Source: Firmicutes bacterium ADurb.Bin182
GTDB lineage: Bacteria > Bacillota > Clostridia > Christensenellales > CAG-138
Direction of reading: 5' to 3'
Length of the DNA stretch: 64,000 nucleotides
Assembly (NCBI GenBank): GCA_002070205.1
Contig: MWCU01000059.1
Span: 442 to 64,441 of the forward strand
Below the pieces are notes generated by a model, which ran no database searches, was not told where the DNA came from, and saw nothing but the letters and a program-made list of their open reading frames with translations. Each line of letters starts with the position of its first letter. The first letter of the stretch is position 1. The translations under genes and the position numbers were made by a program. Below are positions 26,497-33,365 of the stretch, in pieces.

Positions 26497-26528
26497 GTGA
26501 CCGGCGTGTGACCGAAAAATGGTTTAAT
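26497..26528 (+). promoter_or_regulatory. Island promoter copy 1: direct repeat GTGACCG-N4-GTGACCG plus TGg-TTTAAT
   Basis: Half-sites at 26497-26503 and 26508-26514 (11-bp period). Extended -10 TG at 26520-21 and hexamer at 26523-28. The spacing is identical in all four copies. Confidence 0.6.
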
Positions 26529-26534
26529 AAAAGT

Positions 26535-26691
26535 GCGAACAGTCATTTCCAATTCCATAGCCGTTGCGGCCTATTACCTGTCTGCCGTATCCCCGCTGCG
26601 TTGATCCGGCGGGGATACGGAGATACCAAATTAAATTAGATCGCGAAAAATCGCAGGGAGCGGCTTTAAAGTCGTTCCCTGTTTATATTTT
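26535..26691 (+). ncRNA. Candidate structured non-coding transcript driven by island promoter copy 1
   Basis: No credible ORF or RBS. Perfect 12-bp hairpin CCGTATCCCCGC/GCGGGGATACGG (26585-26620). Terminator-like CAGGGAGCG/CGTTCCCTG followed by TTTATATTTT (26654-26691). Ends are inferred, not measured. Confidence 0.3.
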
Positions 26692-26813
26692 GAGCTCTTT
26701 TTTCGCAATCACAGCCGCGCCCGGGCGGACCGGCACATGCCGCGAGCTAATCGCGGACCTGCAAGTCCGGTTTCTTTGAATCCCGATAAATAATTTTATA
26801 TATTTTCACTCAT

Positions 26814-26845
26814 ATGACCGGCGTGTGACTGGCGTATGCTTTAAT
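26814..26845 (+). promoter_or_regulatory. Island promoter copy 2: ATGACCG-N4-GTGACTG plus TGc-TTTAAT
   Basis: Half-sites at 26814-20 and 26825-31. TG at 26837-38 and -10 hexamer at 26840-45. About 60 nt upstream of the 26909 start. Confidence 0.6.
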
Positions 26846-26908
26846 ACATATCGGCATAACGTGACGAATTATCGAACTGTCTGAAGAACTGTGCAGAATA
26901 AACGGAGA

Positions 26909-28519
26909 ATGGAAAGAAGATCTGCGAAAAAACTCAATAAACTGATCGGATTGATCCTTGCGGCGGCGCTTCTTGCATGCGCGCTTCCTTCGGTTTCACT
27001 CGCGAACGGGGTTACTCCCGAACCTTTGGAAACGCTTGCGTCGTCGGGAGGCACGCCCCTGCCCGTTTCGTCCGCGCCCGAAATTACACCTGCACCGACT
27101 CCGGTCATAACCGGAACCCCTGCCCCGGCGCCTGCGCCCGAGCCGACGGTTTCTTTTACGCCTGAACCGGCAGCTTCTTTTACGCCCGGACCGGCAATTC
27201 AAATCACGCCTTCGCCGGCGCAGGAGCCTGAAATCACGCCTGCTCCGCAATTGGGCCCGGAAGCCAGTATGCCGCTTCCCGAAGAGACGGAGGAAGCCGG
27301 CCAAGTTTTGCTTGCCGGCATATTAGCAGTTTCTAATTTGACATATATTTCGGTCGAAACGCCTGATAATCCTGAATATGTACTGGGTGAAAGGCAAAAC
27401 CCGTTTAACAAAAGGATCGAGATCCAAGTTGTCTACGACGGTCGTATATTGGAAAGCGAGGTCAGATACTATGGCGGCGGACATTCGTTTCCGGTGTATG
27501 TACAGATACTGCACGAAATGTTAAAACTGTCGAAAATCGACTATTTGGATAAGAACGGATGGCATTATAACGCACAATTACCATTTACAATAAATTTAAA
27601 CGCAAATGATCCGAATATTATTCGAATTGAACTTGGTTCCAACATTTCGTTTGCAAGCAGTACCGACGCTTGCTCGCTCCAAGGCCGTATTGTCGATCTT
27701 ACGGACCTTGTTTCGGTTTCTTCCGGGTTTACGGGCGGTATCGAGTTTTATAACGCGGCCGGAGATTTGATATCAAGCCCCGAAAACTATGAAGCTGTAC
27801 AAACAGAATCCATAACCGCCCGCGCTGTTGACGGCGTTGGGCTTAGGCTTGCCGAAACAACGTTTACTCTCTGCGTTTACGACCCCGTACTTGCTCCCGC
27901 AAGTCAAACGATATTTCTTGGGGAATCCGCGGTCGTCTCCGTCGATCCCGACACGCTTTACTGCGAGCTTCATCCCGAAGAATCTTTTTCGTTTGATTGG
28001 ACGTCCGGCTCGGAATTCGGAGGAATGCAGCAAACGTCCGGCCAAAGCATTACGGTGACTCCTTCAAAAGCGGGAACGTATACGTATGAGGTCGAGATAT
28101 CGCATTTTGACGGAACGGATACCCAAATAAAAACGCTGACAGCGTCGGTGGAGGTCCTGGATGGAACGCTTGTTCTTTCGCATGAAGGGCATGGCGGCGT
28201 CTGTGACCCGAATCAGTCCTTCATCTTTGAAGTCGTACGCAGCGGCTATAACGGAAGCGACACTGAGACCTTTTATGAGGTCATTCAAGGCGACGGCACA
28301 AAAATCATACGAGGTCTTAAGTTCGGAACATATACCGTCACCGCAATATCGGGCTGGTCGTGGAGATATGTTCCCGAACACTCACATATTACCGTGGATT
28401 TAGGCAGGAACCCGGATGGCGTTTCCTTTGACGTAACGGACTATGTCTCATTCAGAAGCGCGCGCACTTTCCTTTATTGGCTTTCCGGCGAGGCGTTTGC
28501 GACCAACCGTAACCTATGA
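26909..28519 (+). CDS. Secreted protein with a Pro/Thr-rich linker, Ig-like middle and a C-terminal prealbumin/CnaB-like beta-sandwich domain
   Basis: Sec signal 'LILAAALLACALPSVSLA'. About 90 aa of 'TPAP/EPT' low-complexity sequence. C-terminal 'FIFEVV...LKFGTYTVTAISGWSWRY' resembles the 'LKPG.YTVTE' modules of the 33480 adhesin. No sorting signal. Confidence 0.6.
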   Translation: MERRSAKKLNKLIGLILAAALLACALPSVSLANGVTPEPLETLASSGGTPLPVSSAPEITPAPTPVITGTPAPAPAPEPTVSFTPEPAASFTPGPAIQITPSPAQEPEITPAPQLGPEASMPLPEETEEAGQVLLAGILAVSNLTYISVETPDNPEYVLGERQNPFNKRIEIQVVYDGRILESEVRYYGGGHSFPVYVQILHEMLKLSKIDYLDKNGWHYNAQLPFTINLNANDPNIIRIELGSNISFASSTDACSLQGRIVDLTDLVSVSSGFTGGIEFYNAAGDLISSPENYEAVQTESITARAVDGVGLRLAETTFTLCVYDPVLAPASQTIFLGESAVVSVDPDTLYCELHPEESFSFDWTSGSEFGGMQQTSGQSITVTPSKAGTYTYEVEISHFDGTDTQIKTLTASVEVLDGTLVLSHEGHGGVCDPNQSFIFEVVRSGYNGSDTETFYEVIQGDGTKIIRGLKFGTYTVTAISGWSWRYVPEHSHITVDLGRNPDGVSFDVTDYVSFRSARTFLYWLSGEAFATNRNL

Positions 28520-31562: not shown

Positions 31563-32156
31563 TTGAAAAATAAAATATTCGCCGTATCCTTATCGGTCAT
31601 CGCGCTCTCGCTGTTTGTTGCGGGCGGTACGCTTGCGTGGTTTCAATATGAGGATACAGCCGTTAACCTTGTCACCACGGGAATCATCAGGATTGCCGTC
31701 GGCTATACGAAGCTGCAGGACAGTTCCGAGGTGCTGCTTGAGCCGGATCCGGACGATACGCTTGTGCCCGGTTCCGTCAGGTCCTGCATTATGCGCGTTG
31801 AGAACACCGGGACAAGCCCCGCGTATATCCGGGTGAAAGTTACAAAGGAATGGATCCGGGGCGGCGAACCCGCAGGGCTCCCCGATGACAACATCCTTCT
31901 TGATTTTAACGGGGAAGACTGGAAGCGTATCGGCGACTGGTATTATTATATCCATCCGCTTGATAAAAGCGCTTCGACTGAGCCGCTTTTCAGCGAACTG
32001 ACTTTCGCATGCGACGGCGTTCCCGGAGTTAACGACAACGAGTATCAGAACACGGTAATCCGGCTTACTGTAGTCGCGCAGGCCGTTCAGAAGACGAACA
32101 GAGCCATCGAAGCGGTTTGGAGCATATACCCGGTCACCTGGACATCTATCGCTTGA
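31563..32156 (+). CDS. TasA/camelysin-like protein with a SipW-cognate signal peptide (paralog 4)
   Basis: TTG start follows GAAGGTGA. 'LFVAGGTLAWFQY', 'NLVTTGIIRIAV', 'VPGSVRSCIMRVENTGTSPAYIRVKV', 'VVAQAVQKTN...VW'. Confidence 0.75.
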   Translation: MKNKIFAVSLSVIALSLFVAGGTLAWFQYEDTAVNLVTTGIIRIAVGYTKLQDSSEVLLEPDPDDTLVPGSVRSCIMRVENTGTSPAYIRVKVTKEWIRGGEPAGLPDDNILLDFNGEDWKRIGDWYYYIHPLDKSASTEPLFSELTFACDGVPGVNDNEYQNTVIRLTVVAQAVQKTNRAIEAVWSIYPVTWTSIA

Positions 32157-32334
32157 CCACAGCAAAGGCCGCAACGCGGGGACGATCCCCCTGCTTTTTA
32201 AGATGCGGTAAGGACGGTTCTCCTTCTCTGCAATACAGGATAGCGCCGTTCCGTGCTGTCCGACGTCGTATCCTGATGCAGGGGGATCGTCTCCGCGCTG
32301 CGCCGATTAATACCTTTAAAAGGAATGATCCGTT

Positions 32335-33057
32335 ATGCTTAAAAGAAGGCTCTTGTGCATTGCCGGCGCGGCGCTCGTCTGCTCCGGTCTGCTCTTGTTT
32401 CCTTCCTCGTCATTAGCGGCACCCCTTCCGCCCAATGTCGAGTTTATGGGATTGGCGGAACGGCTCGTGTTTTTTGAAGACGACGATCCTTTCCTGTCCT
32501 TTGCCGAAGTGGTTCCGGGAGATTCCGTGACCCGGGGATTTTTCGTCCGGAATACCTCCGGGGTAAATGCCGCATTGTTCATGAAAGCGGAACCGGTGAA
32601 CGACACAGACCGCGCTCTGCTCGAAAGGCTGAATATAAAAATCGCGCTTCCTCACAGGGGTCCGTCTCCCGAACAAGTCCTTTACGACGGGCCGGTCGCA
32701 CGCATGGCGGAAAGCGAGCCTTTCGGTGATTTCGTTCAGCTTGGAGTCGGAAGAGATATCGATGTTGAACTTATCGTCACTCTTTCAGTGCCGGCCGATC
32801 TCACAAGCGAATTCATGGGACGCTCGGCTCAATTCAAGTGGACTTTCAGGGCGGAGGACCGCTCAGGCCCGCCTTTCCCGACGCAACCTCCGCACTACCC
32901 GCCCTTTCCGCCCGTAACGGAAATACCCGGAGTAAAAGCGCCCGGAACGGGAGATAAAAGCATAGCGGAAGCAATAAGGCTGCCGTTTGCGGTTTTGCTT
33001 GTCCTTTTGGGTCTGCTGTTTCTGGTTACTGTTTTTAAGCGTAAAAAAGAAGAATGA
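32335..33057 (+). CDS. TasA-like beta-sandwich protein with a Sec signal and a C-terminal sortase-type sorting signal (paralog 5)
   Basis: Signal 'LLLFPSSSLA|AP'. 'NVEFMGL...', 'VPGDSVTRGFFVRNTSGVNAALFMKA'. Pro-rich stalk 'PPFPTQPPHYPPFPP'. 'KAPGTGD' (32938-52) followed by a hydrophobic segment and 'KRKKEE'. Confidence 0.7.
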   Translation: MLKRRLLCIAGAALVCSGLLLFPSSSLAAPLPPNVEFMGLAERLVFFEDDDPFLSFAEVVPGDSVTRGFFVRNTSGVNAALFMKAEPVNDTDRALLERLNIKIALPHRGPSPEQVLYDGPVARMAESEPFGDFVQLGVGRDIDVELIVTLSVPADLTSEFMGRSAQFKWTFRAEDRSGPPFPTQPPHYPPFPPVTEIPGVKAPGTGDKSIAEAIRLPFAVLLVLLGLLFLVTVFKRKKEE

Positions 33058-33086
33058 TCGGCAATATTTATTAAATTTCCTCCAAT

Positions 33087-33109
33087 GCGGCTTCGGCCGC
33101 GTTTTTTAT
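33087..33109 (+). terminator. Rho-independent terminator after paralog 5
   Basis: GCGGC-TTCG-GCCGC followed by GTTTTTTATT. Confidence 0.7.
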
Positions 33110-33333
33110 TGTCTTTTCGCATAAAATATCGGATTATTCTTAATAACAGCTCCAGACTCGACTTTTGAATAAATCTGTCGAACGATTTTTCCCATGCCTT
33201 TTTCAAATGAGAATCATTATCGTTGTTCTCGGTATGCGCTTATTTGTAAGGGCCTGCTTTGGCGGTGAAGCCCCGTGAACCTTATAATCCGCCAATTCTC
33301 AACACATGCCCGGCCCGGGCCCCTTCCTTTCTT

Positions 33334-33365
33334 ATGACCGGTTTGTTACTGACTGCAATTAAAAT
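33334..33365 (+). promoter_or_regulatory. Island promoter copy 4: ATGACCG-N4-GTTACTG plus TAAAAT
   Basis: Half-sites at 33334-40 and 33345-51. -10 hexamer at 33360-65 with the same spacing as copies 1-3, but no TG extension. About 115 nt upstream of the 33480 start. Confidence 0.5.

Follow-up and report, generated by a model that had tools for sequence, protein, structure and literature searches.

A conserved direct-repeat promoter class at clostridial surface-fibre and adhesin genes, and a candidate SARP-like activator

What reads a promoter that is repeated four times within 6.9 kb, when no gene for a reader lies nearby? The question is raised by a 64,000-nucleotide stretch of DNA from Firmicutes bacterium ADurb.Bin182 (contig MWCU01000059.1, positions 442 to 64,441; hereafter the window, in whose coordinates its features are given), where an island of genes for secreted and surface proteins carries four copies of one promoter architecture based on short direct repeats. 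Here, we describe the geometry and conservation of these sites and the genes that accompany them in other Clostridia. Judging from sequence comparison, we think it likely that the four sites are activator-dependent promoters read by a SARP-like protein, which combines a winged helix, a BTAD domain and a dead GGDEF domain and is encoded outside the window.

All four copies are intergenic, lie on the plus strand 5' of plus-strand genes, and share the form (T)RTGACCG-N4-GTKACYG-N8 followed by a -10 hexamer. The first, or 'orphan', promoter P1 (26497-26528) consists of GTGACCG at 26497-26503, the spacer gcgt, GTGACCG at 26508-26514, eight nucleotides that include TGg, and TTTAAT at 26523-26528. 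P2 (26814-26845) has ATGACCG at 26814-26820, gcgt, GTGACTG at 26825-26831, eight nucleotides with TGc, and TTTAAT at 26840-26845; P3 (28646-28677) has GTGACCG at 28646-28652, gcat, GTGACTG at 28657-28663, eight nucleotides with TGTGg, and TATGGT at 28672-28677; and P4 (33334-33365) has ATGACCG at 33334-33340, gttt, GTTACTG at 33345-33351, eight nucleotides, and TAAAAT at 33360-33365. Positions and sequences match exactly those reported in an initial annotation of the window, as do the repeat period of exactly 11 bp and the constant distance to the predicted -10, which is 8 nt from the proximal repeat in all four copies. The spacers of 20 and 9 nt given there between the two half-sites and the -10 are correct give or take 1 nt, according to the choice of six bases within the heptamer. 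None of the four copies, P1 included, has a -35-like hexamer 16-18 nt from the -10, and a sigma-70 promoter scan calls none of them; copies 1-3 have an extended -10, with TG one base 5' of the hexamer. Because a T stands 5' of each heptamer, the repeat unit is better described as the octamer T-R-T-G-A-C-Y-G.

The four-copy observation is real and non-random. The window holds four exact matches to the pattern RTGACCGNNNTGTKACYG, and dinucleotide-preserving shuffles gave 0.24 matches with two mismatches permitted. A second scoring, for two TGTGACYG octamers 11 bp apart with a maximum of 16, assigned 16 to P1 and P3, 15 to P2 and 14 to P4, while shuffled windows yielded 0.13 sites scoring at least 14 and 0.01 scoring at least 15. 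The flanks of the four copies are unrelated to one another.

The architecture is retained in relatives. At locus L002, whose SipW is 82% identical to that of the window, 28 of 33 positions are identical over the heptamers, the 8-nt gap and the -10, and the rest of the spacer 5' of sipW has diverged to near-random identity. At L003 and L004 (SipW 68-69% identical) the operon starts with a VWA protein, which lies 3' of RGGCTG-N3-TGKGACCG-N8-TATGAT. We scanned 185,579 species genomes with the pattern RTGACCGGNNTRTKACYG-N8-TWWRNT, for which our own arithmetic on uniform base composition predicts about 35 chance hits, and obtained 54 loci: 39 in Bacillota/Clostridia and 15 in other phyla, the latter mostly intragenic and with poor hexamers. 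The source genome is not among the species representatives matched. Positions that the pattern leaves open are strongly biased in the 35 distinct clostridial instances, with T before the first heptamer in 31, G at the R/K positions in 32-34, T-A-T in the -10 in all 35 and A at its fourth position in 29, giving the clostridial consensus T-GTGACCGG-NN-T-GTGACYG-N8-TATAAT. Written as TGTGACCGG-NN-TGTGACYG-N8-TATAAT, the same site occurs at about 36 loci in Clostridia, 5' of genes for surface adhesins, TasA-like proteins and a small protein family that we call TWQG. The 11-bp period is kept in all clostridial instances, and the best -10 lies at exactly 8 nt for every relaxed hit in every locus, with spacings from 6/7 to 9/10 nt permitted.

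Several single genomes carry the site on separate contigs: BRZ_CE bin104 has three such hits, and UMGS1264, SBF912SR2HQ0005 and Merdivicinus faecavium have two each. The regulon is therefore not limited to one island, contrary to the island-specific regulon first proposed. On this comparative evidence, Oscillospirales and Lachnospirales from gut and digesters have the site in common as a conserved class of promoter, and its carriers include the abundant gut genera Fournierella/Allofournierella, Merdivicinus and Caproiciproducens as well as Lachnospiraceae. Beyond the shortness of the motif, nothing favors the view that the four sites are chance matches or a dispersed repeat element without a regulatory role; octamer sites at 0.13 or fewer in shuffles, unrelated flanks, a fixed position relative to the -10 and to genes, and conservation in distant genera leave that view a negligible probability.

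What class of protein would read such a site? A pho box consists of 7-bp direct repeats with 4-bp spacers, overlaps the -35, and is activated through tandem winged helices by a receiver-domain reader; it lies about 10 bp from the -10. WalR recognizes TGTWAH-N5-TGTWAH. Like the sites of PhoB, WalR and PhoP, the repeats of the window are 7 bp long with a 4-bp spacer and sit at the -35, and the initial annotation was right that promoters without a -35 that carry direct repeats on one face are typical of OmpR/PhoB-type winged helices. The combination of 7-bp repeat and 4-bp spacer is common to pho box and SARP sites, however, and is therefore not discriminating. Unlike a pho box, the window sites stand 8 bp rather than about 10 bp from the -10, and those of relatives lack an associated receiver-domain regulator in all but one of about 36 loci. 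SARP operators have heptameric direct repeats in 11-bp units (PMC3367932), with the downstream repeat 8 bp 5' of the -10 and the site overlapping a poor -35 (PMC11301090; for operator and activator features see also PMC10972967). The layout that had been taken for the hallmark of a pho box thus carries, in its 8 bp to the -10, the published hallmark of SARP sites.

The window sites have each geometric feature of a SARP-type operator: two heptameric direct repeats, an 11-bp period, 8 bp to the predicted -10, and a poor or absent -35. They resemble Streptomyces SARP operators (AfsR at afsS; ActII-ORF4, DnrI, PimR) in their heptameric direct repeats with 4-bp spacers on one helix face, in the 8 bp to the -10, and in replacing a poor or absent -35, and they differ in the heptamer itself, which is GTGACYG in the window and in Clostridia as against TCGAGxx or CGGCAAG in Streptomyces. 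A CRP/FNR-type site was weighed for the likeness of the half-site to TGTGA and was ruled out because the repeats are direct, not inverted.

Two further readings of the promoters turn on the same features. The initial annotation had offered a dedicated alternative sigma factor, of which the upstream element would be the -35, and that element is indeed conserved in a -35 region that is non-canonical. Yet it is a tandem duplicate with an 11-bp period, present in three copies at L063, and not a single -35; the -10 of relatives is the housekeeping TATAAT/TATACT; and no sigma gene recurs, those at L038, L045 and L061 being sporulation-type neighbours. We consider a dedicated sigma factor very improbable. 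The repeats could instead be the operator of a repressor that blocks an otherwise constitutive promoter, since the site overlaps the core promoter, a common repressor position, and the same remark has been made for AfsR-type sites (PMC11301090). Against this, none of about 40 instances has a -35, so that the promoters should be weak unaided, and the strict 8-bp register suits contact between an activator and polymerase but is needless for occlusion; repression is, in our judgement, improbable.

A search for the reader has to look beyond the window. Reading of its long open reading frame (ORF) translations, together with hidden Markov model (HMM) searches of its six-frame translation, found no response regulator, sigma factor, SARP-like or TWQG gene within the 64 kb, which bears out the earlier view that the regulator is encoded elsewhere. 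We therefore turned to relatives. Prior-free clustering of the genes at clostridial motif loci returned TasA-like proteins, TWQG, SipW, a SARP-like protein of 400-435 aa and VWA proteins as the most widespread families, and ranking of these families showed the SARP-like one to be the sole recurrent regulator or DNA-binding protein beside the sites. By HMM, its gene is present at 10 of the approximately 36 clostridial motif loci, usually right beside a motif copy or a TWQG gene. It precedes TWQG and an adhesin in the gene order of L016 and L025, follows motif and TWQG at L030, ends just 5' of the motif at L009, L017, L051 and L058, and lies in divergent orientation at L018; examples are L051:1944-3152, L016:6039-7268 (minus strand) and L062:8656-9882, with homologues P0241-P0343, among them the 402-aa protein P0244 of Fournierella.

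The SARP-like protein is about 400 aa long. An OmpR-type winged helix at its N-terminus is followed by BTAD and, at the C-terminus, by a degenerate GGDEF domain, so that it shows the succession of winged helix and BTAD that defines the SARP family. Pfam scores are 25.7-32.1 bits for Trans_reg_C (at or just under to above the cut-off of 26.2), E = 1e-10 to 1e-17 for BTAD, and weak for GGDEF. An AlphaFold2 (AF2) model with a predicted local distance difference test score (pLDDT) of 89 matches EmbR (E = 5e-11) and the SARP domain of AfsR (E = 2e-9) in Foldseek, with template modelling (TM) scores of 0.76-0.79 and a root-mean-square deviation of 3.4-4.1 over about 256 residues; its C-terminal domain matches GGDEF folds. 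The candidate thus belongs by domain order to the same protein class as the readers of Streptomyces SARP operators, with a predicted fold like that of AfsR and EmbR, and public annotation already names such proteins in relatives 'DNA-binding SARP family transcriptional activator' or 'BTAD domain-containing putative transcriptional regulator'. The recognition helix, NPxGALKNLxYRLRN, is the most conserved block of the protein, which we find consistent with the near-invariant heptamer.

The C-terminal domain points to a possible input. PelD and PopA are degenerate-GGDEF receptors for cyclic di-GMP (c-di-GMP) that have an intact I-site. In the SARP-like protein the GG[DE]EF motif has decayed to SxxQ[YF], and RxxD-x5-SxxQ[YF] is found in 87 of 94 homologues, with the R and D of RxxD invariant in two diverse alignments (A3, A5). 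The clostridial protein, like PelD and PopA, therefore keeps an intact RxxD I-site five residues before a dead active-site motif; it is unlike them in that the GGDEF-like domain is fused to a SARP DNA-binding module. Because RxxD is kept, the sequence suggests that this domain may sense c-di-GMP, and that c-di-GMP may be the input signal of the regulator. A SARP-type regulator outside actinomycetes, GSU1771 of Geobacter sulfurreducens, affects biofilm, pili and exopolysaccharide genes (PMC10599522); unlike the clostridial protein it has an N-terminal receiver domain and largely represses biofilm traits, and no site shared between the two is known.

How does this candidate compare with a classical response regulator of the OmpR/PhoB family, in which a receiver is joined to a winged helix and which would belong to a two-component system coded elsewhere? 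Such a reader was the first proposal of the initial annotation, and the class of DNA-binding domain that it implies holds up; the receiver is not supported, with one receiver-domain protein against ten SARP-like proteins in the approximately 36 clostridial loci. The 7+4+7 direct-repeat geometry also suits OmpR-family sites, and the regulator of the source genome is unseen. Moreover, the sipW-bsaABCRSD operon of Clostridium perfringens is under positive control by BsaR/BsaS, a two-component system that is encoded inside the operon and is needed for sipW-bsaA, and BsaR binds the sipW promoter (PMC7395162). The target there, sipW with genes for BsaA/TasA-like matrix proteins, is like that in the window. 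Unlike the C. perfringens operon, however, the island carries no two-component system and neither do L002-L004, where genes farther off are still conceivable, and relatives carry the SARP-like gene instead. An iterated CheY search of 1,907 ORFs placed the single receiver-domain protein at L031, where the gene after the motif is atypical (a PqqD-like ORF of 87 aa), and the 8 bp to the -10 follow the SARP rule (PMC11301090). We hold a response regulator to be unlikely; it stays a fair rival because BsaRS activates the homologous sipW-bsaA of C. perfringens, and the comparative data point elsewhere. The initial interpretation is partly supported overall, and its regulator type is probably wrong.

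The genes that adjoin the operon at L003 and L004, for proteins of 315 aa and 291 aa, do not code for regulators. At both loci a Cache/HAMP methyl-accepting chemotaxis protein is encoded a few kb 5' of the VWA-sipW operon (L003:2666-5122, L004:2284-4722), a neighbourhood that may be plain synteny.

The genes downstream of the motif fall into three groups. The first comprises large secreted or anchored proteins with VWA, Cna_B, thioester (TED), BspA-type leucine-rich repeat (LRR), Listeria-Bacteroides repeat and PMP repeat domains, the second TasA-like proteins, and the third the TWQG protein, which is cytoplasmic, 140-170 aa long and found behind the motif at at least nine clostridial loci. 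Its signature is F-V-x-V-x-x-R-x-N-x-T-W-Q-G...F-R-S-x-L-E-L-L, in which W-Q-G is invariant. TWQG genes occur at L015, L021, L022, L037, L038, L039, L045, L061, L062, L063 and L075 (for example L038:115-624, minus strand, in Caproiciproducens galactitolivorans BS-1); single-module variants have 57-79 aa, and some proteins with three or more modules reach 280-300 aa. No Pfam or NCBIfam model covers the family and all named members are 'hypothetical', yet an exhaustive profile search returned 3,150 clusters at 50% identity (E<=0.001). An AF2 model (pLDDT 70) shows two repeats of strand-strand-strand-helix and has no relative among PDB folds at E < 0.1, and the proteins are mostly acidic, with an isoelectric point (pI) below 7 in 59 of 74 members and a median of 5.7.

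The tight linkage of TWQG to both the motif and the SARP-like gene admits a different division of labour, in which TWQG itself would be the DNA-binding factor, one module per repeat, and the SARP-like protein would have another role. The family is what most often stands directly behind the motif (at those clostridial loci and at L061, L062 and L075), a pattern that resembles autoregulation; its build of two modules parallels the pair of repeats; and at Caproiciproducens-type loci it is found by itself with a perfect site. On the other hand, it belongs to no family in Pfam or NCBIfam, has no fold relative in the PDB at the threshold given above, and is mostly acidic; a known winged-helix class fully accounts for the site geometry, and the pairing of SARP-like and TWQG genes points to a partner role. 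We rate DNA binding by TWQG as a slim prospect.

Several genomes place the TWQG and SARP-like genes next to a cluster resembling those for type IV pili or type II secretion (L015:1783-7111, L022:708-2394, L039:3-1450, L062:2091-6067, L074:1-3909), with genes for a PilT-like ATPase, a GspF-like protein, pseudopilin-like proteins and a transglutaminase-core protein. These neighbours recall the link of type IV pili to BsaA secretion and regulation that has been reported for C. perfringens. At Merdivicinus faecavium L053:2600-2790 (minus strand), one motif promoter is followed only by a 56-aa peptide with a signal sequence and then by a terminator; the peptide could belong to the regulon as a small secreted member, or serve as a signal peptide.

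Does the association hold where loci are chosen independently of the motif? Six loci were picked through the TWQG protein (L061, L062, L063, L074, L075, L076). Five of these (L061, L062, L063, L074, L075) carry the motif in the same 11-bp/8-bp geometry before TWQG and/or adjacent adhesin genes, with three heptamers in register at L063, and L076 has no motif. The SARP-like gene lies directly 5' of TWQG in three of the six (L062, L063, L074). L062 comes from assembly GCA_900104565.1 and L063 from the isolate Acetitomaculum ruminis DSM 5522. L074 is of the same lineage as L016, and the independent counts are therefore four of five for the motif and two of five for the SARP-like gene. A second set was drawn from metagenome loci through the SARP-like protein, with a three-sequence profile whose matches come mostly from one lineage; here L065 and L068 have three motif promoters each and L072 has one. 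The SARP-like gene thus stands beside the site also at L062, L063, L065, L068, L072 and L074.

We propose the following mechanism for the SARP-like activator. Each site would be a sigma-A-type promoter with a -10, extended by TG in three cases, and no -35. Two copies of the activator would dock head to tail on a pair of TGTGACYG repeats that are offset by one helical turn (11 bp), the proximal of which ends 8 bp 5' of the -10. By analogy with AfsR, its two winged helices may substitute for the contact between sigma region 4 and the -35 and so recruit RNA polymerase. The predicted outcome is that the short RNA of the window is induced together with the secreted protein, the sipW/TasA-like fibre operon and the Cna_B adhesin. 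The small acidic TWQG protein, whose own gene is usually under the same promoter, is probably a partner or modulator of the activator, and c-di-GMP, acting through the RxxD of the GGDEF-like domain, is more weakly suggested as the input. The sites with their geometry, their recurrence in relatives and the SARP-like and TWQG genes that accompany them there are observed; we infer from these comparisons that the source genome encodes such a regulator, and that it binds and activates the four promoters in response to this or another signal.

Several observations weigh against this proposal. Its main weakness is that the assignment of the regulator rests on association in other genomes: the SARP-like and TWQG genes are absent from the 64-kb window, L003 and L004, the closest relatives with long flanks, likewise have no SARP-like gene, and about 26 of 36 motif loci have none within the 8 kb fetched. 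At L070/L071, a 54%-identical SARP-like paralogue with the same recognition helix occurs in a sugar-utilisation context with no motif nearby. Sites of much the same shape can also be bound by response regulators of the OmpR family. The -10 hexamers of the window are weaker than those of relatives, and TTTAAT of copies 1 and 2 lacks the usual A at hexamer position 2. The c-di-GMP idea draws on a single sequence motif. Among the matches listed, profile searches with TWQG and with the SARP-like protein named no protein of ADurb.Bin182.

What, then, do the four promoters of the window control? The island is bounded by exoIII (25664-26461) and ispE (35405-36241, minus strand), with wider flanks of housekeeping and sporulation genes (spoIIE, spoIIR, sleB, ypeB, clpB), and the same island is present in SRR17648133 (L001). 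Family matches agree with the downstream genes first proposed, namely a secreted protein, a sipW operon with BsaA/TasA-like genes and a Cna_B/SpaA adhesin. P2 precedes the gene for a secreted 536-aa protein (26909-28519, plus strand) with a signal peptide and a Pro/Thr-rich linker, which belongs to none of the Pfam or NCBIfam families and shows weak similarity to the large secreted proteins encoded behind the motif at L008, L041 and L056. The first gene after P3 encodes a sipW-type signal peptidase (28737-29243, plus strand; TIGR02228, E = 1.5e-31) that shares 100% identity with a database protein of Firmicutes bacterium ADurb.Bin182, and it is followed on the same strand by genes for four BsaA/TasA-like proteins with SipW-dependent signal peptides (29301-29804, 29868-30437, 30494-31132 and 31563-32156; TIGR04090 / TIGR04088 / PF12389). 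P4 precedes the gene for a 526-aa Cna_B/SpaA-type adhesin (33480-35060, plus strand; Pfam Cna_B, SpaA and DUF5979) with an IPKTG sorting-signal-like C-terminus and a terminator at 35075-35100. Between these last two units, a 240-aa secreted protein with a C-terminal membrane anchor (32335-33057, plus strand) is encoded 3' of a terminator-like hairpin (32176-32194) with no motif copy in front, and its membership in the regulon is uncertain.

P1 precedes only a short terminated RNA, as the initial annotation had it, and no ORF with a credible start lies downstream. The predicted non-coding transcript (26535-26690, plus strand, with inferred ends) folds into a strong 14-bp hairpin at about 26583-26622 and has, apart from this, an intrinsic terminator (26653-26682) that runs into a stretch of T; it is unusually stable, with a minimum free energy of -63.3 kcal/mol (z = -5.2 against shuffles). 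Rfam gave nothing at gathering score anywhere in the window and nothing at E<=1 for the orphan RNA or the island, apart from a sole petD intron match (E = 0.24) that we judged spurious; in a blastn search of all loci the RNA matched only the same species. A comparable arrangement occurs at L056 of Gallacutalibacter (1473-1690), where an upstream motif promoter and a short terminated transcript are followed 180 bp on by a second motif promoter and then by an operon for a big secreted protein and SipW. The short transcripts of L056 and of the window share this layout, not their sequence.

Three other features of the window deserve mention. A 431-nt non-coding gap precedes the fourth BsaA/TasA-like gene, and this gap (31133-31562) holds 2.5 tandem copies of a unit of about 40 nt at 31448-31544, just 5' of the gene. 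The unit is a GC-rich hairpin (GGCnGC-gaag-GCnGCC) with a conserved tail (tctccacrtacgaagtaycctctac) and has no Rfam match; the array could be a cis-regulatory or processing element. The gene pair at 36922-39119, which by size might have been a regulator and its kinase, is SleB/YpeB. A 218-aa protein encoded at 40820-41476, 5' of clpB, has an N-terminus that resembles a ribbon-helix-helix DNA-binding motif; it matches no Pfam family, and we saw no tie to the promoter motif.

The literature regards SARP activators as an actinomycete speciality that switches on antibiotic clusters, and global SARPs have been called 'exclusively found in Streptomyces' (PMC11301090); our full-text literature searches returned no paper linking SARP/BTAD regulators to clostridial biofilm or pilus genes. 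The clostridial system is unlike that of Streptomyces in its host, in its targets, which are SipW/TasA-like fibres and sortase-type adhesins rather than antibiotic clusters, and in a candidate regulator that ends in a degenerate GGDEF domain and goes together with a small unannotated protein. What would be new here, by association, is SARP-type activation at clostridial surface-structure genes, with a domain fusion and a partner family that are novel as well. More tentatively, it is possible that many gut and digester Clostridia of the Oscillospirales and Lachnospirales have in common a master switch, so far undescribed, for surface fibres and adhesins, in which a SARP activator with a c-di-GMP-sensing dead GGDEF domain would act together with TWQG at the near-invariant TGTGACYG-N3-TGTGACYG-N8-TATAAT, and of which the promoters and orphan RNA of the window would be one genome's instance. 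The comparison gives a sequence rule with which to predict a colonisation and biofilm regulon in uncultured genomes, a concrete candidate regulator with a plausible second-messenger input, and an entry point to the large unannotated TWQG family.

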